A stretch of DNA of 64,000 nucleotides from Pholidichthys leucotaenia (taxonomy: Eukaryota). Below, one piece after another: positions 11,684-61,739 of the stretch (within the stretch, counting starts at the first letter, position 1; every line of letters starts with the position of its first letter). The stretch is taken from contig CM035838.1 of assembly GCA_020510985.1 (NCBI GenBank), positions 342,515,700-342,579,699 of the forward strand, written 5' to 3'. A model generated the notes under the pieces. That model searched no databases. It saw only the letters and a program-made list of their open reading frames with translations, and was not told where the DNA came from. Position numbers and translations under genes: made by a program.

Positions 11684-13024
11684 ATGTCTCCTGAGCCGGT
11701 GGACGGAGCCACTGTTTATAGCAGGGTACGATACAGCAGAGAACAGCTGCTAGCATTCAACCGCCACCCGGTCCCATTGGAAAAACTCGACATACCGAGA
11801 GAACTGAGGCGAAAACGCCGCGGCTGCCGGGCTGGAGTAAGGCGGAGGACAAAAAATATAAGGTACAGACCCTCCCTTCCATCTGTTGTCATGGGAAAAG
11901 TACGGTCGATACTGGGAAAGTTAGATGAGCTAGCGGCTATCTCCCGTTATGATAGCACATACCGGGAGTGCTCTCTCCTTTTGTTTACTGAGACGTGGCT
12001 AACTGAACTAGCAGCAGATGCTAACATTGAGCTGGAGGGTTTTCACATGATACGAGCTGACCGAACACCAGAGAGTGGCAAGGCTAGGGGCGGTGGAGTG
12101 ATAATGTATGTTAACAACAACTGGTGCAGACCGGGACATATCACTGTTAAACAACGACACTGCAGCAAAGACATTGAGTTGCTAGCTGTTAGCATGAGGC
12201 CTACATATCTCCCGAGAGAACACTCACACGTGATCTGCATTGTTGTTTATGCAAATCTGACGGCGAACGCTGGGACAGCACGTGACGTCATCCATTCAGT
12301 AACCGGCAGGCTGCAGACAGAACACCCAGATGCTCTTCTCCTCATCTCAGGCGATTTCAACCATGTTTCACTGTCTCCCATTCTACCCACGTTCACCCAG
12401 TATGTCACATGCCACACTAGAGACAATAAAACACTGGATTTATTCTACGCAAACACTAAGGAGGCGTACACCTCATCACAACTCCCCCCACTCGGGAGAT
12501 CGGATCACAACTTGGTTCATCTCCGGCCGGTGTACAAACCCCTAGTGCACAGACAACCTCCGGCCATGCACACTGTGGAGTTATGGTCTGAGGAGACAAT
12601 GGACACCCTAAAGGGCTGTTTTGAAGCCACCGCCTGGAAGCAGCTCTGCGATCCACATGGTGAGGACATCGATGGCCTCATTCACACCTTCACGGGCTAC
12701 CTCAGCTTCTGTGTGGACAAATCCGTTCCCACCAAGACCATACGGCGTCACTCAAACAACAAACCCTGGATCAACCCTGAGATAAAAACACTTCTGAGAG
12801 AGAAGAAGAGGATCTTCAGGTCAGGGAACAGGGAGATGCTGAAGTCCGTACAGAGGGAGCTGAGGAGAAAGATCAGAGAAGGCAAGGACAGCTTCAGGAA
12901 GAAGATGGAGGACAAGCTGCAACAGAGCGACATCAGCGGGGTCTGGAGAAACCTCAAAACCATCTCGGGGCTCCAGAATACCTCCCCCAGGCCACAGGGG
13001 GCAGGGAGTGGGCGAACAACCTGA
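11684..13024 (+). CDS. LINE ORF: N-terminal region plus apurinic/apyrimidinic-type endonuclease (frameshifted from the RT)
   Basis: LLLFTETWL, ISGDFNH and GRSDHNLVHL endonuclease-like motifs. Confidence 0.75.
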   Translation: MSPEPVDGATVYSRVRYSREQLLAFNRHPVPLEKLDIPRELRRKRRGCRAGVRRRTKNIRYRPSLPSVVMGKVRSILGKLDELAAISRYDSTYRECSLLLFTETWLTELAADANIELEGFHMIRADRTPESGKARGGGVIMYVNNNWCRPGHITVKQRHCSKDIELLAVSMRPTYLPREHSHVICIVVYANLTANAGTARDVIHSVTGRLQTEHPDALLLISGDFNHVSLSPILPTFTQYVTCHTRDNKTLDLFYANTKEAYTSSQLPPLGRSDHNLVHLRPVYKPLVHRQPPAMHTVELWSEETMDTLKGCFEATAWKQLCDPHGEDIDGLIHTFTGYLSFCVDKSVPTKTIRRHSNNKPWINPEIKTLLREKKRIFRSGNREMLKSVQRELRRKIREGKDSFRKKMEDKLQQSDISGVWRNLKTISGLQNTSPRPQGAGSGRTT

Positions 13025-13185
13025 ATCTGTTTTTCAATAGATTTGACCAACCGCCCTCCCCCCTGACTGCACAACAACCACTGCTGCCTCTAAAGAAATC
13101 AAGTCCTGCTGCCCACTCCCCACTCCACCAACACCCCCCCACTCCCAACACACAGCCCCCCATCCTGACCCTGACCAGGACCCAG

Positions 13186-14589
13186 GTGAGGACGGAGCTG
13201 AGGAAGATCAAGGTGAGGAAGGCGCCGGGACCGGACGGCATCAGCGCAAAGCTCCTCAAGTCCTGTGCAGACCAGCTGTGTGGGATTGTGACGTATATCT
13301 TCAACATGAGCCTGAAACTGGGGAGGGTACCACAGCTGTGGAAAACATCTTGTGTGGTACCTGTACCAAAAACTTCCCACCCCAAAGACCTGAACAGCTA
13401 CAGACCGGTGGCCTTGACGTCCCACTTGATGAAGACCCTGGAGAGACTGCTCCTTGCTCACCTCCGCCCCCTGGTGGAACCAGCGATGGATCCACTCCAG
13501 TTCGCCTACCAGCATGGCATTGGGGTGGAGGATGCGGTGATCTTCCTCCTTCACCGTTCTCTGTCCCACCTGGAGAAGCCCGGGAATATGGTGAGGATCA
13601 TGTTCTTTGACTTCTCCAGTGCTTTCAACACCATCCAACCGATGATCCTGAAGGACAAGCTGCTGCGCGCAGGGGTGGACCAGCACCTGTCATCATGGAT
13701 CCTGGACTACCTCACGAACCGGCCTCAGTTTGTGAGAACCCGGGACTGTGTGTCCAACACGATCATCAGTAGCACGGGGGCCCCCCAGGGAACGGTGCTG
13801 GCTCCCTTCCTGTTCACTCTTTATACTGCGGACTTCTCACACAACACAACACACTGCCATCTACAGAAGTTCTCTGATGACTCTGCGATCGTTGGCCTCA
13901 TCTCCAATGGAGATGAAGCTGAGTACAGAGGGCTTATCCAGGACTTCGTGGACTGGTGCCATCGGAACTGCCTCCAGATCAACGTGAGGAAAACTAAGGA
14001 GCTGGTGGTGGACTGCCGCAGGCATGGGCAGCCCCTCACAGTACCAGTAAATATACAGGGAACAGACATCGAGATGGTGACATCCTATAAGTACCTGGGT
14101 ATTCATCTGAACAATAAACTAGACTGGTCACACAATACTGATGCACTCTACAAGAAGGGACAGCGCAGGCTGTTCCTGCTGAGGAGACTCAGGTCTTTTG
14201 GTGTACAAGGGGCGCTGCTGAAGTCATTCTATGACACGGTGGTGGCATCAGCCATCACTTTTGGAGTGGTCTGCTGGGGCAGTGGCATTACTGCAGCCGA
14301 TAGGAAGAGACTGAACAAACTGATTAAGAAAGCTAGCTCTGTCCTGGGGCAGCGCCTTGATCCGATGGAGGAGATAGGAGAGAGAAGGACGGTGGCTAAA
14401 CTGTCATCTCTGCTGGAGTCCGAGTTCCACCCTATGCAGGACATACTGGATGCACTGAGGAGCTCATTTAGCAGCAGACTACATCATCCCAGGTGCACAA
14501 CCGAGAGGTTTCGTAGGTCCTTCCTACCAACGGCTGTCAGACTGTACAACCTAAGCAGGGCTGCTCGCAGAGATAGCAAAAAGACGTAA
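13186..14589 (+). CDS. LINE reverse transcriptase
   Basis: FFDFSSAFNTIQP, FSDDSAIVGL (FADD-like) and a C-terminal ...SFLPTAVRLYN. Confidence 0.85.
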   Translation: MRTELRKIKVRKAPGPDGISAKLLKSCADQLCGIVTYIFNMSLKLGRVPQLWKTSCVVPVPKTSHPKDLNSYRPVALTSHLMKTLERLLLAHLRPLVEPAMDPLQFAYQHGIGVEDAVIFLLHRSLSHLEKPGNMVRIMFFDFSSAFNTIQPMILKDKLLRAGVDQHLSSWILDYLTNRPQFVRTRDCVSNTIISSTGAPQGTVLAPFLFTLYTADFSHNTTHCHLQKFSDDSAIVGLISNGDEAEYRGLIQDFVDWCHRNCLQINVRKTKELVVDCRRHGQPLTVPVNIQGTDIEMVTSYKYLGIHLNNKLDWSHNTDALYKKGQRRLFLLRRLRSFGVQGALLKSFYDTVVASAITFGVVCWGSGITAADRKRLNKLIKKASSVLGQRLDPMEEIGERRTVAKLSSLLESEFHPMQDILDALRSSFSSRLHHPRCTTERFRRSFLPTAVRLYNLSRAARRDSKKT

Positions 14590-14699
14590 CAAACTAATAG
14601 TTTTTTGAATGCAAAAGATGCAATAGACTTACACAATGGTCCCCTCCGGCATACAACTAGGAACATACCGGTCGCTATGGAGGGTGAGAATATGTATGG

Positions 14700-15060
14700 G
14701 CACATAATCATACCATGTAGGATAACTAAGTAGACGGTTATGCTGTTTCATTCCATCTAGCAACAATGCTCTGCACTGTGTGTGTTTATATATTTACATA
14801 TTTATTCCATCTAGCTACAATGCTCAGCACTGGGTGTGTTTATATATTTATATATCTACATATTATTCCATCTAGCTACATTGCTCCGCACTGTGTGTGT
14901 TTATATACTTGCATATTTATTCCACCTAGCTGCAATGCTCCGTACTGTGGGTGTTTATATATTTACATATTTATTCCATCTAGCTACAATGCTCTGCACT
15001 GTGTGTTCATATATTCATATATTTATTCCATCCAGCTACAATGCTCTGCACTGTGTGTCT
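14700..15060 (+). repeat. 56-bp tandem satellite (about 6 units: ttccatctagctacaatgctc.gcactgtgtgtgtttatatatttacatatttat) inside the LINE 3'UTR, followed by (gt)n and (ta)n
   Basis: Direct visual periodicity. There are 3 units in LINE copy B (47700-47860). Confidence 0.8.
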
Positions 15061-15247
15061 GTGTGTGTGTGTATATATATATATTTTATAGTAATATGTA
15101 CATATGTATATTAGCTGCTCTTGCTTGCTTGTTTTTTTTCTTGCCTTCTGATTGTTGCTCTGAGTGTTGCTATCCCTGTGCTGTTGCAATCCTGGAATTT
15201 CCCCGTTGTGGGACTAATAAAGGCTTATCTTATCTTATCTTATCTTA

Positions 15248-15271
15248 TACATATGTACATATTACTATAAA

Positions 15272-15308
<37 letters not shown>

Positions 15309-15830
15309 GTGCAGAGCATTGTAGCTGGATGGAATAAATATATGAATATATGAACACACAGTGCAGAGCATTGTAGCTAGATGGAATAAATATGTAAATA
15401 TATAAACACCCACAGTACGGAGCATTGCAGCTAGGTGGAATAAATATGCAAGTATATAAACACACACAGTGCGGAGCAATGTAGCTAGATGGAATAATAT
15501 GTAGATATATAAAAACACAGTGCGGAGCATTGTAGCTAGATGGAATAAATATATAGATATATAAATATAAACACACCCAGTGCAGAGCATTGTAGCTAGA
15601 TGGAATAAATATGTAAATATATAAACACACACAGTGCAGAGCATTGTTGCTAGGTGGGATGAAACAGCATAACCGTCTACTTAGTTATCCTACATGGTAT
15701 GATTATGTGCCCATACATATTCTCACCCTCCATAGCGACCGGTATGTTCCTAGTTGTATGCCGGAGAGGACCATTGTGTAAGTCTATTGCATCTTTTGCA
15801 TTCAAAAAAAAAAAAAAAAAAAACTATTAG
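15248..15830 (-). mobile_element. Inverted LINE 3'UTR fragment (stop-proximal part with the 56-bp satellite; lacks the terminal 135 bp)
   Basis: Reverse complement of 14590-15110. Together with 14590-15110 it forms a palindrome with arms of about 520 bp. Confidence 0.8.
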
Positions 15831-23046: not shown

Positions 23047-23172
23047 CTCGTCAGCATCGTAAAAGGCCTCCACAGCTCCCAGCACCAGTCCCTCCTCCTC
23101 AGACAGCACATACACGTCCTGGATCCCCTTTTCCAGCTGCTCCCCAGGCTGCAGGAAGAATGAGCGCTCACC
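23047..23172 (-). CDS. mvp: MVP exon: [42 protein letters not shown]
   Basis: Acceptor catcttcag, donor GACGAG|gtgagg. Matches human [31 protein letters not shown]. Confidence 0.9.
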
Positions 23173-24233
23173 CTGAAGATGATCACAGAAAGGTTAGTCA
23201 ACCCTGGCATGGCATATGCAACAAAATACAGCTTAAACTTTATAAAAGTTATCTTTCTAGGCGTCATTTTAGGCAAGTAATGATAAAAAATATCCAATGG
23301 TTCTCCATTATTTTCAACTTTCAGCAATGAAACGACCCCAGTGACCAAGCTGACATACCAAACATCTGTACATCAGTGGCCCCTAATGAGAACTGATCAA
23401 CATCAAATGTGTGGGAAAAATACACGTCCCTCTGCCCAAAAATGGAATCCCTCATTTCAGTCGAAACTTCTGTATAAAGAGGAAGCCAATGCAATCAGAA
23501 ATGTAGAAGTTATACTGGTGACAATATAAAATGGAGTGAAAAGGTAAACCTTTTTTTAAGTTCTAGCCACAATAATTTTTCTACTGATGTCCGAGCTTAA
23601 TTCTGCTTAGCTTGGTGAGACTATGCCACATTTTTGTTTAGCCATTTCACTTAATCTACGTTTTTATTCACTTAACCTTCTGCTAATAATTTAAACGTTT
23701 GTGGAAATGTGGAAATGTGAAAATGACGAGGCAGAGTTTATCTCACGAGTCAGGTTTATTCACATCTTCCAACATCAGCAAAGCAGAAAGAGGAAAAAAC
23801 ATAGACATTCGTCCTTTATATATCCAGGACCTTCAAAGCTCACAGTCACATTGCCTTTAATCACAAGTAACAGTGCATCTTCTCTGAGATCCCATAACCC
23901 CCACATAGTCTCTGGCAGACCAGGAAATCCCCCCGTCTCTTGCATACCAAAGACTAAATTTTCACATCCTCCTGTTATCTCCAAGGAGACCCAGTTCTTT
24001 GTTCTCTCTGAGATGTGAAGCTTAAAGTGATACACATGCGTCCCACATGACCCCCCCAAACATCTAAGATGGAACAACAGAATAACAGTTTGCATGTCAT
24101 GATAAAATCATTACACATTAACCCACGTGCTGCTTGGGCCTCAGTCTCCTCCCATATCTGCTGTAAGCGGGCTTTGCCACTTCTGCGGCGCCATCCCGCT
24201 GGGGCGCTGCTGTCTTGGGGTGAGAACTGTTCG

Positions 24234-25253
24234 TCACTCCCTGTGGGTGTTCTGGGGAATGTCCCTGGGGGGGGGGGGGGGGGGGGTCTGCCCTGCCCTG
24301 GCCAACAGCACACCCTCGTCCGCCACCACAAAGGCGGGTTTGAGCCTGTTTATGCCAATCTTTTCCTTCCTGCCACCCAAATCTAGCAAAAAATGTTTGT
24401 CCCCTGTTTCCAGCACTCTAAATGGTCCATCATAAGGTGGTCGCAGCGGTGGGCGATGGGCATCATGTCTGACAAAAACAAATTCCGCGTTTTTCAAAGC
24501 CTCAGGCACAAAAACGCACGGAAAACTGTGGTGAACGGGGCCAGGCAGCGTGCCCGATTCTGTGCCACGCTGCAACCGCTGAGATGGGGAGCTATCTGGC
24601 ACAGGGTTATCTGGGAGAAACTCCCCGGGCAGTCGAAGTGGTTGCGCAAAAACTAGCTCAGCCGGGGAGGCTTCCAAGTCCTCTTTAGGTGCAAAATGCA
24701 ACCCCAATAAAACCCACGGTAGCCTGTCCACCCAATTTGCATCCGTCAGCGACGCTCTGAGAGCCGCTTTCAATGACCTATGAAAACGTTCGCATAACCC
24801 ATTAGCCTGCGGACTGTACGTGGTTGTGCGGTGGATCGTTACCCCCAGGCTGCGGGCCATTGCTGACCAAAGTTCGGAAACAAATTGAGGGCCTCTGTCG
24901 GACGTAATGTCCGACGGGACTCCAAAGCGCGCTACCCATGCTGTTAAAAACGCGCGCGCCACCTCCTCGGCTGTGGTTGACGCCAGTGGGACCACTTCCG
25001 GCCAGCGCATGGTGCGGTCCACCATTGTCAGGAGGTATGTGCACCCCTGTGACGGTGGGAGGGGGCCTACGAGGTCCACGTGAACATGATCGAACCTCTT
25101 AGCCGGGATGTGAAACGGCTCCAAGGGAGCTTTCGTGTGTTTGTGTACCTTGGCTCGTTGACAAGCCATGCAGGCTGCCGCCCACTCCTTAACTTGTTTG
25201 CGCAGGCTCGGCCATACAAATTTCTCTCCTACCATTTTGACCGACGCGCGCAC
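24234..25253 (-). CDS. Retrotransposon integrase
   Basis: [28 protein letters not shown] and ITSDRGPQF. Confidence 0.8.
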   Translation of the reverse strand: MRASVKMVGEKFVWPSLRKQVKEWAAACMACQRAKVHKHTKAPLEPFHIPAKRFDHVHVDLVGPLPPSQGCTYLLTMVDRTMRWPEVVPLASTTAEEVARAFLTAWVARFGVPSDITSDRGPQFVSELWSAMARSLGVTIHRTTTYSPQANGLCERFHRSLKAALRASLTDANWVDRLPWVLLGLHFAPKEDLEASPAELVFAQPLRLPGEFLPDNPVPDSSPSQRLQRGTESGTLPGPVHHSFPCVFVPEALKNAEFVFVRHDAHRPPLRPPYDGPFRVLETGDKHFLLDLGGRKEKIGINRLKPAFVVADEGVLLARAGQTPPPPPPRDIPQNTHRE

Positions 25254-25991
25254 TCACGGGTGCGCCAGAAAATGAATCGAGTCAAAGACGCGGCGGCGCC
25301 ACGCGGCCGGTACCGCAAGACGCGGTCGCCCAGTGGAGACATCGCAGATTAGGGGGAGCGTACCGTCTTGCAGCACCCTGTTCTCCAGCCTTAACCCTGT
25401 TGGTCCAGACTGGAGCGCGCGCACGTCCGCGTCGCTAACCTGATCCGCGGCCATGGCTGCATAATCTATCCCTACGCGGACTGGGGCCGCCACGGCGCGC
25501 GGGAGACAGTCTGCCACTACATTAAGTTTACCCGCCACATGCTGAATATCGGTAGTAAACTCTGAGATAGCGGCCAGCTGTCTTTGCTGCCGGCCTGACC
25601 ACGGTTCTGAAACCTTGGCCATCGCGAATGTCAGCGGCTTGTGGTCAACGAACGCGGTGAAACGGCGTCCCTCCAGCCAGAACTGGAAGTGGCAAATGGC
25701 CAAGTGGAGAGCTAACAACTCCCTGTCGAATGCGCTGTATTTTCGTTCACTATCGCGCAAAGTCCTGCTGAAAAAGGCGAGCGGCTGCCAAGCCCCGGCT
25801 ACATGCTGCTCCACGACCGCCCCTATGGCCACATCTGACGCGTCAGTAGTGAGCGCTATGCAGGCCGTTGGGTCTGGATGTGCTAACAATGCAGCGTTTG
25901 CCAGGGCTGTTTTGACCTCCGAGAATGCTCGCTCTCGCTCCAGAGACCATTCGATCTTATTTGTGGGTTTTTGTTTTTTTGAGTGCGGCAT
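25254..25991 (-). CDS. Retrotransposon RNase H region
   Basis: TDASDVAIGAVVEQ...[13 protein letters not shown]. Confidence 0.75.
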   Translation of the reverse strand: MPHSKKQKPTNKIEWSLERERAFSEVKTALANAALLAHPDPTACIALTTDASDVAIGAVVEQHVAGAWQPLAFFSRTLRDSERKYSAFDRELLALHLAICHFQFWLEGRRFTAFVDHKPLTFAMAKVSEPWSGRQQRQLAAISEFTTDIQHVAGKLNVVADCLPRAVAAPVRVGIDYAAMAADQVSDADVRALQSGPTGLRLENRVLQDGTLPLICDVSTGRPRLAVPAAWRRRVFDSIHFLAHP

Positions 25992-26782
25992 ACAATGGTT
26001 GCGTGAGCTGCGCTGCGCGGGGGAGGAAACGGTTATAAAAATTCACCATTCCCAAAAACTCCTGTAACGCCTTGACCGTTTGTGGCTGGGGAAAATTTGC
26101 TACAGCGCGCAGTTTGTCAGGCAGCGGAACCGCTCCTTCTGGAGAGACGCGATGCCCCAAAAAAATCAATCTGCGTCACCCCGAACTGACACTTCGCTGG
26201 GTTGATTATTAAACCATGCTCTCCCAACCTCCGGAAAACTGCCGTGAGGTGTTTTTCGTGTTCGTCTTCGGACGCGCTGGCTACTAAGATGTCGTCCAGG
26301 TAGATGAATACGAAGGGGAGATCACGCAACACCGCTTCCATCATGCGTTGGAACGTCTGTGCAGCGCCTTTAAATCCAAACGGCATGCGCAAAAACTCGA
26401 ATAGCCCAAACGGAGTTATCACCGCTGTTTTGGGTATGTCCTCAGCGCACACTGGGACTTGGTGGTAACCGCGGACCAAGTCTACCTTACAAAAAACGCG
26501 CGCCCCCGCCAAATGAACGGAAAAATCTTGGATATGCGGGATTGGGTAGCGGTCGTGCGCTGTAGCGTTGTTCAACCTGCGGAAATCTCTGCAAGGTCGC
26601 CACGAGCCGTCAGCTTTCGGGACCATGTGAAGCGGGGAAGCCCATGGGCTGTTCGAACGCCTGATGATGCCCAACCTTTCCAGGTTGGCGAACTCCTCGT
26701 GCGCTATGGTCAGTTTAGCTGAATCCAAGCGCCGAGCTTTTGCAAAAACGGGCGGCCCGGTGGTAGTAATAAAATGTTCCAC
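25957..26782 (-). CDS. Retrotransposon reverse transcriptase (two frameshifted ORFs)
   Basis: [36 protein letters not shown] and [13 protein letters not shown]. The frameshift lies near 26117-26169. Confidence 0.8.
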
Positions 26783-26881
26783 CCCGTGTTTAGCGACGGC
26801 TGCTGAAAATGTGGGAACCGTGAGTGCTGGGAACTGAGTGAGCAGTGTGTGGAACTTACCGCTTGCAGCTGTGACGTATAC

Positions 26882-27304
26882 TCAGGCTGTACAGGGAATA
26901 GAATAAAAAGAAAGTGCATTAACCAGGCGCCTGTTAGCAAGATCAACCAACAAACCATGTGAGCACAGAAAATCAGCCCCCAACATATTGAAATTCACTG
27001 CAGCTATGACAAAAGTCCACTCAAATGTACGGCCGTGTAGGGACATAAGCAGAGTCCTCTCACCAAAGGTCTTAATCTCCGAGCCGTTCGCTGCTGACAC
27101 CCCAGGACCTCTGGAAACCGCCAGCCGGTCAGCGGAGGAAGGTGTGATGAAACTCAACTGGGAGCCTGTGTCCACGAGAAAATGCCTCCCCAAGCGCGCA
27201 TCCTTCAAGTAGAGCAGCTTGTTCTCCTCCCCGAGGGCCGCAGCTGCTACCGACCCCCGGTCTTGGCGTTTCCCGAGAGCTTGAACTGGCACGGTGGTAT
27301 ACAT
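26882..27304 (-). CDS. Retrotransposon aspartic protease
   Basis: FLVDTGSQLSFI (DTG active site). Confidence 0.7.
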   Translation of the reverse strand: MYTTVPVQALGKRQDRGSVAAAALGEENKLLYLKDARLGRHFLVDTGSQLSFITPSSADRLAVSRGPGVSAANGSEIKTFGERTLLMSLHGRTFEWTFVIAAVNFNMLGADFLCSHGLLVDLANRRLVNALSFYSIPCTA

Positions 27305-28029
27305 TTGCGTGCCTTCTCTGCAAAGCGGCGATGGTAGAAACAGAGGATGTCTTCTCCATGATCCTTGGCCCCCGCCACCGCTGTCGTCGGTGGTTCTGCT
27401 ACTGCCGTCTCTGGCCCCCCGCCATCTCCGGCCATCGTGCTGAACTCCGTCGCTGCTGCGGTGGCAGCGCGCCGTTTGCTGGCGTTGAGAATCCAGTGCG
27501 CTTCCTGGGCCAGCGCGCGGAAGTCCCGCTGGGCCAACAATGGCAAGCTGGCCAGGGTCGCTCTCATGGCCGATGGTAGGGTCCTGAGGAAAATGTGGGT
27601 GAAGATGAAGTCGTCGTTGTCTGAGCCCCTCAACCTCAGCATGTCCTCCATCAGGTCAATGGGCGTGCCATCTCCCAAGTCGTTCAGAGCCAGGAGCCTC
27701 TCCGCTCTCTCCTCGACTGAGAGAGTGAAACGCTGGATGAGTGCAGCCTTCAACCCGCCGTATTTGTCGTTGGCCGGTGGCCGCTCCAATATGCTCTGCA
27801 CATGCCGAGCCGTGCGGTTGTCGAGCTTTGCAATCACATGGTAGAACTTCGTGTCATTTACCGTTATCCCCCGGAGGGCGAATTGTGCTTCGACCAAGTG
27901 GAACCAGGAGCACGGGTTGTCTTGCCAAAAGTCCGGTAGCTGGACCGTAGCGGCATACGCTTGGCTGGGAGCTCCTGACTCGGCTGGCCCGGGGGACTTT
28001 CTTTTGTCCATGATACGTCTTAGGGTCAC
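27247..28029 (-). CDS. Retrotransposon gag-like protein with no recognisable CCHC knuckle
   Basis: 260-aa ORF starting just inside the primer-binding site (MDKRKSPGPA...). Homologous to the gag of copy 3. Confidence 0.6.
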   Translation of the reverse strand: MTLRRIMDKRKSPGPAESGAPSQAYAATVQLPDFWQDNPCSWFHLVEAQFALRGITVNDTKFYHVIAKLDNRTARHVQSILERPPANDKYGGLKAALIQRFTLSVEERAERLLALNDLGDGTPIDLMEDMLRLRGSDNDDFIFTHIFLRTLPSAMRATLASLPLLAQRDFRALAQEAHWILNASKRRAATAAATEFSTMAGDGGGPETAVAEPPTTAVAGAKDHGEDILCFYHRRFAEKARKCIPPCQFKLSGNAKTGGR

Positions 28030-28590
28030 CAGTGTGGAAATGTGAAAATGACGAGGCAGAGTTTATCCCACGAGTCAGGTTTATTCACATCTTCCAACAT
28101 CAGCAAAGCAGAAAGAGGAAAAAACATAGACATTCGTCCTTTATATATCCAGGACCTTCAAAGCTCACAGTCACATTGCCTTTAATCACAAGTAACAGTG
28201 CATCTTCTCTGAGATCCCATAACCCCCACATAGTCTCTGGCAGACCAGGAAATCCCCCCATCTCCTGCATACCAAAGACTAAATTTTCACATCCTCCTGT
28301 TATCTCCAAGGAGACCCAGTTCTTTGTTCTCTCTGAGATGTGAAGCTTAAAGTGATACACGTGTCCCACACGTTCATCATTTTAGCAAGTTAACTCTGCA
28401 CATTCAATTTTATCTCTTTGACCACATTTACAGACGTGGCGACAAGCCACAGCTTTATCACCACCTTTAACCATTTAATTATTCACCGACACCAACTGCA
28501 TTGTACATTTTCAATCAGCCACGATACAGGTCCAGTTCAAGTAAAGACGGAATTAGAAGTTGAAAGAATTACAGGGAGACATTTTCTCAC

Positions 28591-28827
28591 CTTCACCACC
28601 TTCTTCTGACCCAGCTGAGGTTTACCATCAGGGCCGACTGGGTCCAGGACCACACAGTACTGCCTGCTGTTCAGTGTGGTCACATTCACCACACCCACCA
28701 CCTCCTCTGCTACAGAGGGGATGTGAGCCTCCCTGTCGGCCATGGTAACCAGCCACTCTTCCCCAGTACGGCGGTCACGTCCCCCGGCGTCTTTGAAGGC
28801 CCGCAACGCGCGGACATGGAGCGCTTT
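28591..28827 (-). CDS. mvp: MVP exon: [79 protein letters not shown]
   Basis: Acceptor cctgttttcag, donor GTGAAG|gtgaga. Strong match to human ...[60 protein letters not shown]. Confidence 0.9.
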
Positions 28828-39232: not shown

Positions 39233-39772
39233 AAATTACTTTGAAATTAAAAGTCCAGAAAACATGGCGATGCATTGATAAAAGCCTTTAATTCCACCTG
39301 ACTTTCACTGGGCGAGCTGAAAACCTGGTAACAGACAGATCGATACGCACACAGATACATGGACACACTACCATATACCTACTTTGCTCATGCGTACCAA
39401 GGCATAACAAACTATTTTCTTTCAGGCATGCACTCTTTTCGGATGAACATTTAATATAAGTCAACAACATTTGAGCAACAGGTTTGACATCACATTAACA
39501 GAATGATATAATTTAGTTCATGCTTGAAAAGGGCTTCTTAATGGTCCAAGTTTGTTCATTCGGAGAAGTGGCACCAAGTTTTAAATAAAGTAAAATTAGA
39601 TGGAAATGGGCTTAAAGCCACTGCAGCTGAAGGCATTACCAAAAAAATACCTTTGTTGTGTTTTCACATATAGGTCAGAGAATTATTCAACATCTTATGT
39701 AGATTAGAAATGCTACTTAGCTTTAAGCCTTTTTTTTTTGCTCTGAACAAGACAAATAAGGGGTGGAGTTAC

Positions 39773-39867
39773 CTTGTCAGTCAGGATGAACGCGTTTACA
39801 ATGTCGATGACCTCTTCATGGGCGCCTGGAAGATACGCTCCCACCTTTCTGACCAGCCACTCCTCAC
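39773..39867 (-). CDS. mvp: MVP exon: (G)[31 protein letters not shown]
   Basis: Acceptor gtgtggtacag|GTGAGGAG, donor GACAAG|gtaact. Matches human [32 protein letters not shown]. About 10.2 kb of TE-rich intron lies upstream of this exon. Confidence 0.85.
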
Positions 39868-40751
39868 CTGTACCACACACACACAGGACAGATGAAACAC
39901 AGCTCATGATAGGAAGGGGGAAATGACTGGGATTTAGTCCTTTAAAGTCATTTAAATTAGCAGAGGGCTATTAATTTGTTTGAGGTTTTTGTTTTACATT
40001 TATTGAAGCACTGAAGCTACAAAAAATAAGCTTATAAAACAAAACATAAGATCATTTATCTATTATCACATTTTTAAATGTACATACTGTAATACAGGGT
40101 ATCAACATAAGACACTTAAGAGAAGCTGTTACTTTAATATAAAAAACAGAACCATTGTGACAGTAGTTTAGCATTTCATATTTGTATTGAAATATTCTAA
40201 AACAAGGTTTTATTCATTTTGATCACTTAAATAAAATACTTAAACTAAAAACTTTGCAGATATGAATTGAGTTACTTGGACAAGGTAAACTGGGTCATGC
40301 CTTCTTTTCACTTTGATAATTTACCATTGTATATGATTTATAAAATTCTGCGTGGCTGCGTTTACAATGTCGGTACCACTCAGCGCAATGTGACACCCTC
40401 TTGGCAAGGTGTCCTGAATGAATCGACAACAAAGCATTGCCAAGATGGCCGCAGTGCATCTTGTTGTTGCTGTTGTATGATGGGCGTTGGCTCAAGTTGA
40501 GCTCGTCTATCCTTTTATAGGTCTTGTTTTTCATCCTGCTGGATGTCATGCAGCACTCCTCACCAGCACAAAGCTGGTAGGGGAGCTGTTTTAGACGACT
40601 ACCCATCCGTGTGGCAGGTTGCACTGGGTTACACTGCCAGCAGTAGCAGTCTATCTAGACCCTGACCGGACACTGGTTATATGGTTTATAACATTTACAT
40701 TAAACTACACAAAACCTTGTACCTGCACATAACCCATAATCTACAGAAACG

Positions 40752-42346
<1,595 letters not shown>

Positions 42347-42934
42347 CAATTTTGTCCATGTGTGCTGGTCACAACTTTCTGCACACGGAGTACACAGCTT
42401 CAATTTCCACCAAACCCAACAAAAACAGTTTATTATAGTTCTACTTAAAGCTGCAATCATATTTCATGGTTCATGAAGCTCAGATGCCTGATCACCAGCG
42501 CACACATTTACTACACTAGTCAACAGCCGTATGTCCATTGCAAGATCTTGGAACAGACTTTACGGGAACCGATGGTGCGTGTCTCCACCATCAAACCATC
42601 CCCTGTAATTGGAAGTTTTCAGGAACTCGTAGGGGCCAACAGTAGCAGACTCAGACATGGGCCATGTGGGCAAGTGCCCGGGGCACAGTTCTTTTGAGGC
42701 CACCATGAGAATCAAAAGAATAAAAATAATAAGAGACTGATAAATATGTGTGCCGAGTGTGTATTTGTGGCAAATGGGCGCCCTCTACAGGTGGGATGCC
42801 GGCGCCCTCTGGTTGCGGATGGCAGACTCCATAGATCAAACTCCAGTATGGCCCATTCAAAGCGCAGCAAAGAAAATTAACAAAAAAAAAAAAAAATGTT
42901 AAAAGTAGTTTTTTCTTAGATTATGCAGCAGTTT

Positions 42935-43085
42935 TAACTTGAGCTCTAAAATGGCTACATTTGGTCATCACAGCTTTTGTTATGTAACAATTTTTCTACA
43001 ATGTGTTGTAGTCATTGGAGAAAAATTGTTACATAACATAAGCTGTGATAACCAAATGTAGCCATTTTAGAGCTCAAGTTAAAAC
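42935..43085. repeat. Palindrome with arms of about 65 bp (ttaacttgagctctaaaatggctacatttggt.atcacagctt..ttatgtaacaatttttc / reverse complement) and a loop of about 20 bp
   Basis: Direct inspection shows the reverse-complement arms. Confidence 0.75.
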
Positions 43086-43098
43086 CTGTTGTAGTCAG

Positions 43099-43483
43099 GG
43101 CGGTGCGGTGGCAGAGTGGTTAGCACTGCAGCAGCACAGCAACTCACCCTTAGCCGGGGGATCCCGGGTTCGATAACAGCCCCTGACCAACAATGATTTG
43201 TGTGGAGTTTGCATGTTCTCCCCATGTCTGCGTGGGTTTACTCCAGGATTTCCTCCCACATCCCAAAAACATGCAAGTTGGGTTAATTGGCATCAACCGG
43301 GGATTCTAAATTGTCCTTAGATATGAATGTGAGAGTGAATGGTCTTCTGTCTCTCTGTTCTGTGTTGGCCCTGTGATGGACTGGCGATCAGGGTGTACCC
43401 TGCCTCTCGCCCAAAGATGCTGGGATAGGCTCCAGCACCCCTGCGACCTGAAAAGGATTAAGCGGAAGAAGATGGATAGATGG
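43099..43483 (+). mobile_element. tRNA-derived SINE with 12-bp TSD TGTTGTAGTCAG
   Basis: The head gcggtgcggtggcagagtggttagcactgcag...gggttcgat and the body are shared with the other copies. The identical 12-mer lies at 43087-43098 and 43484-43495. Confidence 0.8.
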
Positions 43484-44382
43484 TGTTGTAGTCAGCTTCA
43501 GTTTAGTGACCACATGAATTAATTTCAGGGCTGTGCAGAGACCATTTGAGAGGCAGGGGTGCAAATTAATTAAAAAAAAAAAAAAAAAGGCACACGGAAT
43601 GAGATTTGTTGAAAATATATGTCAGCTTTATGTGTTACTTAATTGGTGTCCATTTTACTTCAATAACTATACACTCATTGACATATTTAATACCCCATGG
43701 ACTTTTTCAAATTATCAACTGCGACAGAGACCATGGTCTTCATCATTAATTACGTAAAGGTCAATGACAAAAAAAAAAAAAAAAAATGGTCAGCTTCCAT
43801 TGAAAAATGATTCTTTTCAAAATAAAAACATCTTTGCAAAAATCTGGAAAAAAAGCTTTTCTTTCAATAATAATTAAAACTTCATTCAAATGACTAAATC
43901 ATTGCAAAAAAAATTTAAAAAGGCCATTCACCTAGTCCACAAAATGAGCCCAAACCATCCCCTCTGTTAAACTGCCGCCCTCCATCTCCACAAAGACTGC
44001 AAGGATAGTTTATACAAGAAAACGTAGTACGGGGCATCTCAATAAATTAAAATGTCATTGAAAAGTTGATTTATTTCAGTAATTCAGTTAACCTTTTAAC
44101 TGCCCCAGGCACCGTATGGCGACAGGGATGGTTAAAGGGTGGTCAAGGCCCCTAGTGGTCAAGAGTGGTAAAAAATTTTGTCAATAAAATAGTTCAGATT
44201 TCCAAGGCTATAACTTGGAAGCTACAAGAGATAATGGCTTACTGTCAATTAGAAAGATGTAGAATATGATCCAAAGTTTCAGATGGGAATAAATTTACGC
44301 ATCTAATTTGCATAATGTCACGGCAGCTATATAAATTACATAACTCAGTCAAAATTGGACTTTGGACACATTTACACAAAGA

Positions 44383-44500
44383 ATGGACTGGCGATCTGTC
44401 CAGGGTGTACCCAGCCTCTCGCCCAAAGATGCTGGGATAGGCTCCAACCCCCCGCCACCCGAAAAGGATTAAGCGGAAGAAGATGGATGGATGGATGGTC
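44383..44500 (+). mobile_element. 5'-truncated SINE fragment (3' part only)
   Basis: ggactggcgatctgtccagggtgtacccagcctctcgcccaaagatgctgggataggctcc...ggattaagcggaagaagatggatgg. Confidence 0.65.
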
Positions 44501-44654
44501 CGGGTTTTTTTTACGCCTTTTTGTCTACAGGGGTCTGTTTTTATCAAATCTTCAAAGTATATGAACCAGAAAATCAATAAAATGTGAAAAAAAACATATT
44601 TCTCATTAACCTGTTGCCGGGAGGGGAAGGTTCGTTCGCCCACGTGACCGGTCC

Positions 44655-44965
44655 GTTTTCGTCCATTGTGGTCGATGTTTTGCGTTTGCTCGGTCATTTA
44701 CACTCTCTACCACATGTACAAACTCTTATGATTATCCCACATGAATTTTGTTTGTATTACACGGCTATTTTTCCTGTTTGGTGCATTTTTCCCATGAGAA
44801 TGCATGACGATCGTGGGCACCGCCACCTTGGTACCGGTAGCTCAGTTTTTCGCCCATAGTGGTCGAGGTTTCGTGTTTGGTCAGTCATTTACACTTGTAC
44901 AAACTCTTATGATTATCCCACATGAATTTCGTTTGTATTACACAGATATTTTTCCTGTATATATA
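44655..44965. repeat. Tandem duplication of a unit of about 190 bp (cattgtggtcga.gtttt.cgtttg.tc.gtcatttacac...caaactcttatgattatcccacatgaatttt)
   Basis: Two units by inspection, immediately upstream of LINE copy B. Confidence 0.6.
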
Positions 44966-45159
44966 CACACATATATATTTTCCATGTCAGCCATCATTCC
45001 TTCGGCACGTGTCTGCCACCTTGTAAACTGTCCGATAAATAGAGATTAGTACAAATTCTCAGTATAGCCGGGGGACGTCAGTAAGTTGTCAAGTGCAGTT
45101 GCTGTGCCACTGGGGGCGCGTGACCCATCCATTTAATCTGGGCGGTTACACACTTTATA

Positions 45160-47988
45160 CATCACGGACACACAGATCGCCCCAAATGTCTCCCGAGCCG
45201 GTGGACGGAGCCACTGTTTACAGCAGGAGACGGTACAGCAGGGAACAGCTGCTTGCACTTGATCGCCACTCGGTGCTAACGGAAAAACTCGACGTACCGG
45301 GAGAAATAAGGCGAAAACGACGTGATTGTCGGGCTGGTGTTAGACGGTGGACAAGGAATATAAGGTACAGACCCACCCTCCCATCCGTTGTTATGGGGAA
45401 TGTACGATCTACGTATATTGGGAAAGGTAGATGAGCTAGCGGCTATCTCCCGCTACGATAGCATATACCGGGAGTGCTCCCTCCTTTTGTTTACCGAGAC
45501 GTGGCTAACTGAACTAGTAGCAGATGCTAACATTGAGCTGGAGGGTTTCCACGCTGGCTGTTTTGAAACCACCGCCTGGGAGCAGCTCTGCGATCCACAT
45601 GGTGAGGACATCGATGGCCTCACTCACACCATCACGGACTACATCAGCTTCTGTGTGGACAACACCGTTCCCACCAAGACCATACAGTGTTGCTCAAACA
45701 ACAAACCCTGGATCAACCCTGTGATAAAAACACTTCTGAGAGAGAAGAAGAGGATCTTCAGGTCGGGGAGCAGGGAGATGCTGAAGTCCGTACAGAGGGA
45801 GCTGAGGAGAAAGATCAGAGAAGGCAAGGACAGCTTCAGGAAGAAGATGGAGGACAAGCTGCAACAGAGCGACATCAGCGGGGTCTGGAGAAACCTTAAA
45901 ACCATCTCTGGGCTCCAGAATACCTCCCCCCAGGCCACGGGGGGCAGGGAGTGGGCGAACAATCTGAATCTGTTTTTTAATAGGTTTGACCAACCGCCCT
46001 CCCCCCCCCGACTGCACAACAACCACTGCTGCCTCTGAAGACATCAAGTCCTGCTGCCCACTCCCCACTCCACCATCACCCCCCCACTCCCAACACACAG
46101 CCCCCCAACCTGACCGTCACTAAGACCCAGGTGAGGACAGAGCTGAGGAAGATCAAGGCGAGGAAGGCGTTGGGACCGGACGGCATCAGTGCAAAGCTCC
46201 TCATGTCCTGTGCAGACACATGTGTCCTGTGTGGGATTGTGGAGTACATCTTCAACCTGAGCCTGAAGCTGGGGAGGGTACCACAGTTGTGGAAAACACC
46301 TTGTGTGGTACCTGTACCAAAGACTTCCCACCCCAAAGATCTGAACAGCTACAGACCAGTGGCCCTGACGTCCCACATGATGAAGACCCTGGAGAGACTG
46401 CTCCTTGCTCACCTCCGCCCCCTGGTGGGACCAGCAATGGATCCACTCCAGTTCGCCTACCAGCATGGTATTGGGGTGGAGGATGCGGTCATCTTCCTCC
46501 TTCACCGTTCTCTGTCCCACCTGGAGAAGCCCGGGAATGCAGTGAGGATCATGTTCTTTGACTTCTCCAGTGCTTTCAACACCATCCAACCGATGATCCT
46601 GAAGGACAAGCTGCTGTGCGCAGAGGGTGGACCAGCACCTGTCATCATGGATCCTGGACTACCTCACAAACCGGCCACAGTTTGTGAGAACCCGGGACTG
46701 TGTGTCCGACACAATTATCGGTAGCACGGGGGCCCCCCAGGGAACGGTTTTGGCTCCCTTCCTGTTCACCCTTTATACTGCGGACTTCTCACACAACACA
46801 ACACACTGCCATCTACAGAAGTTCTCTGACGACTCTGCGATCGTTGGCCTCATCTCCAACGGAGATGAAGCTGAGTACAGAGGGCTTATCCAGGACTTTG
46901 TGGACTGGTGCCATCGAAACTGCCTCCAGATCAACGCGAGGAAAACTAAGGAGCTGGTGGTGGACTGCCGCAGGCAAGGACAGCCCCTCACAGCACCAGT
47001 AAACATCCAGGGAACAGACTTTGAGATGGTGACATCCTACAAGTACCTGGGTGTTCATCTGAACAATAAACTAGACTGGTCACACAATACTGACGCACTC
47101 TACAAGAAGGGACAGCGCAGGCTGTTCCTACTGAGGAGACTCAGGTCTTTTGGTGTACAAGGGGTGCTGCTGAAGACATTCTACGACACGGTGGTGGCAT
47201 CAGCCATCACTTTTGGAGTGGTCTGCTGGGGCAGTGGCATTACAGCAGCCGATAGGAAGAGACTGAACAAACTGATCAAGAAAGCTAGCTCTGTCCTGGG
47301 GCAGCGCCTTGACCCAGTGGAGGAGATGCGAGAGAGAAGGATGGTGGCTAAACTGTCATCTCTGCTGGAGTCCGAGTTCCACCCTATGCAGGACACACTG
47401 AATGCACTGAGGAGCTCATTTAGCAGCAGACTACATCATCCTAGGTGCACAACCGAGAGGTTTTGCAGGTCCTCCCTACCAACGGCTGTCAGACTGTATA
47501 ACCTAAGCAGGGCTGCTCGCAGAGATAGCAAAAAGGCGTGACAACCTAATAGTACTGAATGCAAAAGGCGCAATAGACTTACACAATGGTCCCCTCCGGT
47601 ATACAACTAGGAAAATACCGGTAGCTACGGAGGGTGACAATATGTATGGGTACATAATCATACCATGTAGGATAACTAAGTAGACAGTTATGCTGTTTCA
47701 TTCCATCTAGCTACAATGCTCTGCACTGTGTGCGTTTATATATTCATATATTTATTCCATCTAGCTACAATGCTCCGCACTGTGTTTATATATCTATATA
47801 TTTATTCCATCTAGCTACAATGCTCCGCACCGTGTGTCTATATATTTATGTTTATATGTACATATGTATACTCGCTGCTCTTGTTTTTTTCTTGCCTTCT
47901 GATTGTTGCTCTGAGTGTTGCTATCCCTGTGCTGTTGCAATCCTGGAATTTCCCCATTGTGGGACTAATAAAGGCTTATCTTATCTTA
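45160..47988 (+). mobile_element. LINE copy B (same family as 11653-15247) with an internal deletion in the endonuclease region and a frameshifted RT
   Basis: Same 5' end (tatacatcacggacacacagatcgcc). ORF fragments at 45093-45434, 45388-46038, 46131-46724 and 46627-47541 are 85-90% identical to copy A. The 3'UTR has only 3 satellite units and ends in cttatcttatctta. Confidence 0.8.
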
Positions 47989-48182
47989 AAGGGTTAAAAG
48001 TGCATGCCCATAGAAACCAAGTATAAGCAAGTATTTGCATGCCCGTAGAAAGGAGGTGTAAGCAAGCATTACATAACATTATTATTATTATTTGTATTTG
48101 TATCTTGTATACTTTATTGATCACCAGAGGAAAATTCAGGGCTTCCATGGTACAGCGCCGATCCCTTCACCAGTGTCTCACT

Positions 48183-48185
<3 letters not shown>

Positions 48186-48216
<31 letters not shown>
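48186..48216. repeat. (CA)n microsatellite
   Basis: Visible run. Confidence 0.95.
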
Positions 48217-48219
<3 letters not shown>

Positions 48220-48559
48220 CAGAATGACCCATTTGGCTGCAAGTTTTGCATCAGTGTTGCCCATTTGTCTGTAAATATTTAAATAAAAATTATTTATTTC
48301 GTTATTTGGACATTTTTGTGTCTTGCTGTCATTTAGTCAAAGCGTGTGTCCACATGTAACATGCAGTTCATCTGGTCATTCTGCTCCACAGTGAAGCAGC
48401 AGTCGGGACTTTCGTCTACCACTGGCTAGGCAGGCTGAGCGTGCCTCCCTCTGAACATTCGTGGAGCGCACAGTGGGACATCGGTGTTGGCCGGTTAACG
48501 GGAGTCTCGGCTGCTGCCTTACCCATGTGCCAGTGATGTCAATGCGGCACCACGGGTCC

Positions 48560-49060
48560 CCGGCAGTCCTCCCCCCCCGCACCTTGTGTTCGCTATGGCA
48601 AATATATCCATTAGATCTATGCAACTTTATGGTATATATTTTGACTCACCGGCACCATACTCGTGGATGCGTGGGTCCCGGGCAGTGCACCCCCCCCCAA
48701 AACACATACACACCTCGTGTTCTCTATGGCAAATATATCCATTAGACCGACGCAACTTTATGGTATATAGCAGCTCCATACTAGTGGATGCACGGGTCCT
48801 TGGCAGCGCCCCCCCCCCCCCCCACCGCATTCTGTATGGCGAATACACAACTTTATGGTATATATTTTGACTGAGCGGCTCCATACTCATGGATGCACTC
48901 CCTCGTAGCCTCAGCAGCAAGCGTTGTGGTGACTGACAGGTTGTGATGCCTGACAGGTTGTGATGCTGTGTTATCCAGTCAGCATGGTCGTGATGCCGTG
49001 TATTGTCCAATCAGCATGGCGGTGATGTGGCGTATTCGCCAATGAGCACAAAGTCAATTC
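48560..49060. repeat. Unclassified tandem repeat of about 130 bp, 3 units (tctatggcaaatatatccattaga...caactttatggtatata...ccatactcgtggatgc..gggtcc), followed by short repeats caggttgtgatgc and cagcatggtcgtgatgccgtgtat
   Basis: Direct visual periodicity. Confidence 0.6.
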
Positions 49061-50112
49061 GAAACCCCGCCCACGCTTCTTGAAGCCAGGGGGTGAAAAC
49101 AGAGTGGTCACACAGCGGTGGCTCAACTTTTATTGATAAAAATTACATATTTTGACTGAGTGACTCCATATTTGGGGATGCACACCCTCGTAGCTTCAGC
49201 AAAGCACGTTTAAAATCTTAGGTCAGTGTGACAAACGGTTTGAGAGATATCTGAGGAACAAGCACACACAGACACACAAACCAAGAGGTGTCTTGAATTT
49301 ATAGCTAGAGAAAAAGTAAAAAAAAAAAAAATGTTTAAAAAAAATATATGTGTGGGGGGGAGAGTGGTGCACCGGGGAGACAGTTCGACCAGGGCGTCAT
49401 ACAAGCCAGGACCACCCCTGGGGGCCAAAATAAGTCCCTGGTCTAGGGTAGATAGTTTACCCAGAAAACTGCTGGGTAGGTTTTGAAATCAACTCCGGAT
49501 ATACAGTAGCTCAGCATCATGATGTAAACGGAATAGAAGCCATGTTGTACAATGCCTAAAAATTTTAAATCTAATACCGCCATGACTGCGGAGGGAACCA
49601 CTCAGATTTAATAACACGGCATATTCAAGTTGTGTGGCCACACAATGGGAGGGCATTGCATAAGACTGGCAGCTCACGCTGTCCATAGTAAGGAAGTGGA
49701 ATGTCTGGCCACACAGCTATGCCCTATAATTGATCCGTTCCTCCTAAATCTTTAATAACGGCAGCAAGTTGGTCCCATGCCCTCCACTGTAGTCATTTGG
49801 TGCATAATCATTTCTGTATGATTGCAATGCATTCTGAACAATGCAGTTTAACTGCGTCAGAGATGAAACTGTCAATTACATTAAAAAAAAAAAAAAAACA
49901 CCTTGGAGATGTTTGGGTCCTACCCCCACCAATGGAAATATTTCAGGGGACTTGATGTAGGAACAGGCCTTACCAAAGTTCCTGATCCTAAAAATTAGTT
50001 TACAGTTTCTGCAACAATGGGTTTCCAGTTCTGCCAGTGGAAACTGGGCTTGCATCAGTTTAACAGAATCACACATTTGGCATTTCTCTATACTCCAGCA
50101 CGAGTTTGGTAC

Positions 50113-50244
50113 CTGTGACTCTGTTGACTCCACTTCGGTCCTTGCCCTCTTTGCGAGCCCTCAGTCTGATGGCCTGGTTCTCCCTGATCACCGTGGCCTT
50201 GATCGTCTCCAGCACGGCCACCTCCTTCCTCGGGATGTAGGTCC
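50113..50244 (-). CDS. mvp: MVP exon: (G)[43 protein letters not shown](G)
   Basis: Acceptor tgtttgtttcag|GGACCTAC, donor ACAG|gtacca. Matches human [32 protein letters not shown]. Confidence 0.85.
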
Positions 50245-50372
50245 CTGAAACAAACATTTTTATTGGATATTTACAAAAATTTAAAGATCCAAAATCAAGG
50301 GGGGACTCTGCCATTTAACAACCAGTCCACCCTCTTTGAAAGCAACTATATTTGAGCCCAGATTGGACATGC

Positions 50373-61128: not shown

Positions 61129-61739
61129 CTCCCCAAGTGCGAGTCCGTCACGTAGAGCAACTTGTTCTCTTCACCGGCGGTCGCAGCTGCTACCGACTGC
61201 CGGCCTTGGCGTTTCCCGAGCACTTGAACTGGCACGGTCTCTCCGAAGCGGCGGTGGTAGAAGAAGAGCGTGTCTCTCTGGCGCTCCTTGGCCCCTGCTG
61301 CCGCTACCGTCGGTGGCTCCTCGCCTCCTCTGGTCGTCTCGCTGGGCTCCGCCACCGCCGCATTGACAGTGATCGCCCGGGTGGTGAGGATGATCCGGTC
61401 TGCCTCCTGGGCTAGTGCACGGTAGTCACGCGCGGCCAGCAACGGCGAATTGGCCAGAACCGCTCTCGCCTCCGTTGGAAGGTTCCGGAGGAAAAGGTGG
61501 GCAAACAGAAAGTGCCCGTCGTCCGTGCCCATTAACGCCAGCATCTTCTCCATCAGATCGACGGCCGAATCATGTCCTAACTCGGTCCGCCCCAGGAGCC
61601 TCTCTGCTCTCTCACATTCCGAGAGCGTGTAGCGCCGGGTCAGCGCAGCCTTGAGCGCCTCGTTTTTGCTGCGGGCTGGAGGCTGATCGAGCAGGCTCGC
61701 TACCTGCTGGGCTGTGAGAGCGTCCAGCGCTGCTACCAC
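61038..61739 (-). CDS. Retrotransposon gag-protease ORF
   Basis: Gag region homologous to copy 2 (RAERLLG...LFLRNLP). The protease motif reads FLVNTGAQKSVIP, with the active-site DTG replaced by NTG. Confidence 0.65.
   Translation of the reverse strand: MVAALDALTAQQVASLLDQPPARSKNEALKAALTRRYTLSECERAERLLGRTELGHDSAVDLMEKMLALMGTDDGHFLFAHLFLRNLPTEARAVLANSPLLAARDYRALAQEADRIILTTRAITVNAAVAEPSETTRGGEEPPTVAAAGAKERQRDTLFFYHRRFGETVPVQVLGKRQGRQSVAAATAGEENKLLYVTDSHLGRCFLVNTGAQKSVIPPSYCWQYLAVPDLWQ

Follow-up and report, generated by a model that had tools for sequence, protein, structure and literature searches.

A Gypsy-like LTR retrotransposon with a defective pol region in the sixth coding intron of mvp in Pholidichthys leucotaenia

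In Ty3 of the yeast Saccharomyces cerevisiae the enzymatic domains are arranged in the order protease, reverse transcriptase, RNase H and integrase (PR-RT-RNaseH-INT), the long terminal repeats (LTRs) have the form TG..CA, and gag and pol occupy separate overlapping frames. Ty3 employs +1 frameshifting, is primed by initiator tRNA-Met, generates a 5-bp target site duplication (TSD) and targets genes transcribed by RNA polymerase III. The element described here resides in the genome of the teleost Pholidichthys leucotaenia, within a stretch of 64,000 nucleotides (assembly GCA_020510985.1, contig CM035838.1, positions 342,515,700 to 342,579,699 of the forward strand). This whole stretch is referred to as the window, and coordinates are those of the window unless another sequence is named. 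The element lies in an intron of mvp, which specifies the major vault protein, and shares with Ty3 the domain order, the LTR termini and the two overlapping frames. It differs from Ty3 in possessing a -1 frameshift signal, a primer binding site (PBS) of the tRNA-Trp type, a 4-bp TSD and a DUF7041-containing Gag.

Among elements of fish, Volff et al. are said to have grouped Jule of Xiphophorus, in 2001, with Mag of Bombyx and SURL of sea urchin in the Ty3/Gypsy lineage. The Jule LTRs are reportedly some 200 bp in length, and one copy is reported to sit in an intron of a host gene. The P. leucotaenia element resembles the Jule/Mag lineage in its small size (~4.7-4.8 kb), the lack of env, the absence of a chromodomain match, its teleost host and the existence of nematode relatives. 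This resemblance is offered as a lead only; a search of the literature on Jule and Mag gave passing mentions.

The sequence between 23700 and 28370 is, in our view, a structurally complete, coding-defective copy of a teleost Ty3/Gypsy element which integrated once into the sixth coding intron of mvp and is now carried there as a passive passenger; we would assign this reading a probability of about 0.88. It is an ordinary degenerate insertion, and what the present analysis adds is a corrected list of its lesions, a conserved -1 signal and a tRNA-Trp PBS. The LTR retrotransposon measures 4,671 bp. Its LTRs were located by a direct-repeat search, which gave one pair ~4.3 kb apart, followed by reading and alignment of the ends. 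Because the sense of the element corresponds to the minus strand of the window, the LTR with the lower window coordinates is the 3' one. The terminal features and priming sites are as follows:

23696-23699, no strand: TSD CGTT, downstream of the element in its sense orientation, as read in the sequence itself
23700-24047, minus strand: 3' LTR, 348 bp, TG...CA, the left LTR in window coordinates
23760-23755, minus strand: AATAAA of the 3' LTR, read from the sequence
23822-23816, minus strand: TATATAA of the 3' LTR, read from the sequence
24051-24065, minus strand: polypurine tract (PPT) AGATGTTTGGGGGGG, with a G7 run 3 nt upstream of the 3' LTR
28023-28031, minus strand: PBS TGGTGACCC, separated from the 5' LTR by 1 nt, with complementarity to the tRNA-Trp 3' end
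28033-28370, minus strand: 5' LTR, 338 bp, TG...CA, the right LTR in window coordinates
28085-28080, minus strand: AATAAA of the 5' LTR, read from the sequence
28147-28141, minus strand: TATATAA of the 5' LTR, read from the sequence
28371-28374, no strand: TSD CGTT, on the upstream side in element sense, identical to 23696-23699

A preliminary description of this DNA had proposed a complete Gypsy-like element at 23696-28374 which arose by a single integration and is bounded by perfect CGTT duplications. This holds: CGTT is read on both sides, and the LTR pair, the TSDs and the interior domains are all in place. With the boundaries fixed independently by the TG/CA termini, the PBS and the PPT, a 4-bp match would occur by chance in one case in 256. 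Perfect 4-bp TSDs border all four elements in which they were read, namely CGTT here, ATAC in a second copy in the window (copy 2, described below), ATCC in a relative from Synchiropus (L001) and ATGT in one from Maylandia (L002). The flanks of the intronic element are single-copy within the window. Exact-match scans of the Joint Genome Institute (JGI) metagenome contigs gave no match to the reconstructed empty site CTAATAATTTAAACGTTCATCATTTTAGCAAG, which carries a single CGTT, nor to a segment of the LTR.

The LTRs had been described as nearly identical apart from an 8-bp duplication. The duplication exists (TGTGGAAA, in tandem at the outermost tip of the 3' LTR, 23700-23707); otherwise the two are not identical, as they differ in addition by four substitutions, all of them transitions and two of the four at CpG, and by a 2-bp indel near 24035. 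The LTR-LTR divergence, a calculation that the same description had proposed, is 0.012 by the Kimura two-parameter (K2P) method, with an identity of 98.8% over 338 aligned sites. In the sense orientation TATATAA is at position 224 and AATAAA at position 286 of 338, a placement which reads as the normal U3-R-U5 (unique 3', repeat, unique 5') layout.

The presence of both a PBS and a PPT, likewise proposed earlier, is upheld, and both are conserved in relatives. According to two papers the complement of the tRNA-Trp 3' end reads TGGTGACCCCGACGTGAT. The beginning of the PBS is common to copy 2 (TGGTGACCCTAGACG), L001 (TGGTGACCCCG) and L002 (TGGTGACCCC), and we take the site in the intronic copy to be real but short. 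A run of 7-14 G residues situated 3-5 nt before the 3' LTR also occurs in copy 2, L001 and L002. No tRNA genes were found in the 64-kb window or in the loci of four relatives.

All open reading frames (ORFs) of retroelement type within the element are on the minus strand of the window, and Pfam matches place them in the order Gag(DUF7041)-PR-RT-RNaseH-INT, an order of domains that agrees with the preliminary description:

27247-28011, minus strand: gag ORF, intact, 254 aa, with ATG at 28011 and stop codon TAG at 27249-27247
27939-27691, minus strand: DUF7041 in gag (Pfam E 1.5e-21)
26966-27184, minus strand: aspartyl protease (Pfam gag-asp_proteas E 1.5e-5), active site LVDTGS in the translation
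26156-26623, minus strand: reverse transcriptase (Pfam RVT_1 E 2.8e-33), YLDD present, match to Ty3 RT 4ol8 at E 1.9e-85
25557-25949, minus strand: RNase H (Pfam RT_RNaseH and RT_RNaseH_2)
24234-25253, minus strand: integrase ORF with Integrase_H2C2 zinc finger, rve DDE core and C-terminal GPF module (Pfam and prototype foamy virus integrase matches)

The C-terminus of Gag bears a CX2HX9CX3C knuckle. A literature search on DUF7041 gave no papers. Pfam showed no chromodomain in the integrase region, and there is no env, because only ~190 nt separate the integrase stop (24234) from the 3' LTR (24047). A run of about 21 G residues on the plus strand (24267-24287; C in element sense) encodes poly-proline in the C-terminal tail of the integrase, at a position where relatives read PRRGRPP; this is likely a homopolymer expansion or an assembly-prone site.

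Four lesions interrupt pol:

26882-26884, minus strand: lesion 1, an in-frame TGA in the PR-RT linker
26158-26164, minus strand: lesion 2, one additional nucleotide (T) in a T7 run of the sense strand, a frameshift in RT; removal of one T restores the frame
25974-25980, minus strand: lesion 3, one additional nucleotide (A) in an A7 run of the sense strand, which shifts the frame after the RT thumb and before RNase H
25254-25256, minus strand: lesion 4, an in-frame TGA where the zinc finger of the integrase would have the Gly of its conserved HPG motif (HPGV in relatives)

Removal of one A at lesion 3 yields LKKQKPTNKIEW, and the reading is then collinear with that of copy 2 and of other relatives. 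If a -1 slip is allowed, the two extra bases are deleted and the two stops are read through, a collinear Gag-Pol of 1,258 aa results. All four lesions are private to this copy, none being found in copy 2, in copy 3 (a third, partial copy in the window) or in any relative fetched. Because pol is interrupted twice by TGA and twice by a +1 insertion in a homopolymer, this copy is, as read from its sequence, unable to make Pol and thus non-autonomous, while gag is still open. The two TGA stops alone suffice to inactivate pol, whatever the status of the homopolymer indels.

The preliminary description had likewise called the pol frame broken and the copy non-autonomous. That stands on the strength of the two stops and two frameshifts, but the change of frame from gag to pol is no part of this damage and coincides with a conserved -1 signal:

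27231-27274, minus strand: frameshift signal, comprising a slippery heptamer (27274-27268), a 7-nt spacer and a stem-loop

The frame of pol is shifted by -1 with respect to that of gag, and the heptamer, G GGA AAC in the gag frame, falls within the gag/pol overlap six codons before the gag stop. The 10-bp stem is formed by 27260-27251 and 27240-27231, and its loop holds the gag stop codon TAG. The combination of zinc knuckle, heptamer, stop and -1 pol is found also in elements of Synchiropus splendidus, Maylandia zebra, Entelurus aequoreus and Serrasalmus rhombeus (L001, L002, L004 and L005). In an alignment of five sequences 94% of the cells of the stem are paired and 5 of the 10 pairs show double changes, compared with 36-44% in controls in which the partner strand was slid. 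The folding energy of the stem is by itself not significant (z = -0.94), and it is the covariation that supports the structure. We had also considered a 1-nt deletion in the G5 run (27258-27254) as the origin of the frame change; this was rejected, and the change is not regarded as damage, because four other species share both the two-frame arrangement and the heptamer. Taken together, conservation and covariation suggest that this lineage uses programmed -1 frameshifting.

G GGA AAC is the slippery site of the luteovirus-type signals of beet western yellows virus (BWYV) and pea enation mosaic virus (PEMV). The heptamer of the element is identical to it, and here too a structure follows after a spacer of ~6-7 nt. 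The predicted stimulator differs from those of the luteovirus-type sites in that it seems to consist of a simple stem-loop of 10 bp, the loop of which contains the gag stop codon. GGGAAAC together with such a stem-loop may constitute a frameshift element that has so far escaped cataloguing, in a Gypsy lineage widespread among teleosts. An Rfam scan of the element, the frameshift region included, revealed no known RNA family.

Two further sequences show other arrangements. L003 (Logan ERR1987952 contig, nt 877-960) retains the heptamer GGGAAAC and a stem of 7 bp without mismatch, but its spacer is 11 nt and not 7, and gag and pol are consequently fused in one ORF of 1,300 aa; it could be either a mutated copy or a variant in which the frames are naturally fused. 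L006, on a TARA scaffold of more distant relationship, contains only one ORF and lacks the heptamer. The NCBI gene models of relatives (P0124, P0133, P0126 and P0142) translate the gag zinc knuckle in the pol frame or splice around it, and the frameshift sites hidden by such models are at 2756 in L001, 2763 in L002, ~38470 in L004 and ~2135 in L005. These models apparently bridge the frameshift, in which case the annotated proteins would be artefactual across the junction.

The closest solved structures to the restored polyprotein are Ty3 Gag-Pol [E 1.9e-103, 7q5b] and the Ty3 RT/RNase H 4ol8 listed above, here again at 1.9e-85. The next entries other than Ty3 are an "Enzymatic polyprotein" [7e-45, 8r0s] and protease-RT-RNase H structures [~3e-35, 7ksf and 7o0h], with RT/RNase H p80 of murine leukemia virus (MLV) type at ~1e-23 in the same ranking. 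By its domain order and these structural matches the element is classed as Ty3/Gypsy (Metaviridae-type). Its nearest protein relatives are teleost sequences of ~1,050-1,390 aa which display 57-73% identity and the same Pfam architecture. They carry names such as "uncharacterized protein K02A2.6-like", which we take to be linked to a C. elegans gene, and "Gypsy retrotransposon integrase-like protein 1" (Synchiropus, Maylandia, Entelurus, Serrasalmus, Oreochromis and others). More distant matches were obtained in a myxozoan and in a nematode (Trichuris). The teleost elements resemble the intronic copy in having a tRNA-Trp PBS, a G-run PPT and a 4-bp TSD (L001, L002) and the same -1 signal (L001, L002, L004, L005). 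The intronic copy differs from them in its longer LTRs (338-348 bp compared with ~180 bp in L001 and L002), in a PBS match cut to 9 nt and in its four private pol lesions.

The LTR divergence of 0.012 derives from four transitions, and the Poisson range for four events is ~0.3-3%. If 1e-8 to 1e-9 substitutions per site and year are assumed, the age of the insertion (K/2r) comes to roughly 0.6-6 million years. This may be an overestimate because two of the four LTR changes are at CpG. The interior has a GC content of 56% and a CpG observed/expected ratio of 0.88, versus 45% and 0.58 for the window, values consistent with a relatively recent arrival. The insertion had been called young; with ~1.2% LTR divergence this is a fair term in an evolutionary sense, but the insertion is not brand-new.

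The exons of mvp were located with a human MVP sequence, which served as a probe only. Fifteen coding exons were found on the minus strand in descending order from 51572 to 7440, with identities of 51-79%; all 15 are in order and the matched segments are free of stops. Peptides derived from the window match major vault proteins possessing Vault, MVP-repeat and MVP-shoulder Pfam domains, the best at 83% (Goodea atripinnis). The exons adjoining the insertion are:

28591-28827, minus strand: mvp coding exon 6, donor GT at 28590-28589
23047-23172, minus strand: mvp coding exon 7, acceptor AG directly upstream

The element lies between these exons, the distance being 216 nt to the donor of exon 6 and ~520 nt to the acceptor of exon 7, and the integration site is AT-rich. 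With the element the intron measures 5,418 nt and without it ~743 nt, that is, it has become about 7-fold longer. The earlier placement in mvp intron 6 is correct when counted from the exon that contains the ATG, and so is the sense orientation assigned to the insertion, as element and gene are both on the minus strand.

Based upon these features a life cycle can be proposed. Transcription would start downstream of the LTR TATA box and end after the LTR AATAAA. Translation of the first ORF would give Gag, and a fraction of the ribosomes would slip by -1 at G GGA AAC, stimulated by the stem-loop 7 nt downstream, to produce Gag-PR-RT-RH-INT. The 3' end of tRNA-Trp at the short PBS would prime minus-strand DNA and the G-rich PPT would prime the plus strand. 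A staggered cut of 4 bp by the integrase would then have allowed a single integration into the mvp intron in the sense orientation of the gene, with duplication of CGTT. Thereafter the copy would have undergone neutral decay, reaching ~1.2% LTR divergence and gaining its pol lesions, and it would at present be a passive passenger that is spliced out with the intron.

Several points weigh against this account. The PBS matches tRNA-Trp over 9 nt here and over 10-11 nt in relatives, and the protease match falls just under the Pfam gathering score. Both frameshifts in pol are in 7-nt homopolymers and could be assembly errors. Programmed frameshifting is a prediction from sequence, and removal of the element by splicing is an assumption. 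The rates behind the age estimate were assumed.

As to identity, the order PR-RT-RH-INT is common to BEL/Pao elements and retroviruses, and avian retroviruses also use a tRNA-Trp PBS according to one paper, so that a BEL/Pao element or an endogenous retrovirus might be envisaged in place of Gypsy. We find this scarcely credible and have rejected both identities on the Pfam results and the Ty3 matches: the BEL/Pao families Peptidase_A17, DUF1759 and DUF5641 had no Pfam matches at E<=0.01, Ty3 is by far the best relative of solved structure, and the ~190 nt left after the integrase stop speak against a retrovirus with env. That the insertion, or some of its lesions, arose in assembly through a collapsed repeat or homopolymer errors is very improbable. 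The +1 character of both frameshifts in A7 and T7 runs and the long G run at 24267-24287 would suit such an origin, but flanks that are unique, a TSD without mismatch and a pair of non-identical LTRs fit a real single insertion. More serious, though still doubtful, is the idea that the copy was defective already at integration, its RNA having been mobilised in trans by intact relatives. Related copies in the same 64-kb window make it plausible that trans-acting proteins were at hand, and what is needed in cis (Gag, PBS, PPT and LTR ends) is intact. Against this, ~0.6% divergence per copy over a 4-kb interior leads one to expect ~24 changes, enough for two stops and two homopolymer indels, and copy 2, copy 3 and the relatives fetched have none of these lesions. 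We retain the reading in which the copy decayed after it had integrated.

Whether the insertion has been neutral for mvp is a separate question. LTR-mediated insertional mutations are usually caused by LTR elements that lie in introns in the sense orientation, such as IAP and ETn of mouse, and introns are depleted of such elements. The AATAAA signals of the LTRs, cryptic splice sites or the promoter of the 3' LTR might thus give truncated or chimeric mvp transcripts and a hypomorphic or altered allele. The shared strand of element and gene would favour this, as would canonical TATATAA and AATAAA motifs in both LTRs on the sense strand of mvp, the proximity of the exon 6 donor (216 nt) and the ~7-fold longer intron. 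On the other hand all mvp coding exons are intact, and persistence through ~1.2% LTR divergence and four pol lesions argues against strong harm; on balance we consider a non-neutral insertion unlikely. More speculative, and quite improbable, is that the insertion represents a lineage-specific or still polymorphic allele in which the LTR AATAAA or the 3' LTR promoter yields truncated or N-terminally shortened MVP transcripts, that is, a natural hypomorphic or neomorphic allele. We prefer to regard the element as a passive passenger of the intron.

For annotation this means that ~4.7 kb of the mvp intron is degenerate retrotransposon, and gene predictors should be warned that its gag and pol ORFs are not host genes and ought not to be fused by false introns. 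The insertion provides a presence/absence marker that can be dated and whose empty-site sequence is known, for use in comparing populations or species. Were the LTR polyadenylation signals used, it might be a natural modifier of mvp expression. The -1 signal and tRNA-Trp PBS indicate how a teleost Gypsy lineage is expressed and primed, which is useful for curation of transposable elements (TEs) and involves no new principle.

The window contains other mobile elements:

57853-62299, minus-strand sense: copy 2, another element of full length, from a related subfamily and 71-81% identical in DNA to the intronic copy
1-2678, plus-strand sense, opposite to mvp: copy 3, a related Gypsy element of ~76% identity, downstream of the mvp 3' end and cut by the start of the window
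11684-15353 (plus strand), 45388-47541 (plus strand) and 63354-63968 (minus strand): ORFs resembling those of long interspersed nuclear elements (LINE-like, non-LTR), with RVT_1 and the Pfam family "ALKBH8_N"

The LTRs of copy 2 (57853-58158 and 61982-62299) are ~95% identical, the right one having a 12-bp duplication. It has the ATAC TSD and the PBS TGGTGACCCTAGACG mentioned above; the region of the zinc knuckle and frameshift signal is deleted and pol contains frameshifts. This copy sits ~6.3 kb upstream of the mvp ATG (51578). Copy 3 retains long open ORFs for RT-RNaseH (43-1359) and integrase (1275-2678).

Introns 4 and 5 of mvp (39770-50248) are ~10-11 kb each, far above the other introns of this gene. 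Their size presumably results from repeat insertions; one LINE-like ORF cluster was examined there. Two of the LINE-like ORF regions are inside large mvp introns and antisense to the gene. The LINE-like ORFs and the Gypsy copies together make the mvp locus rich in TEs.

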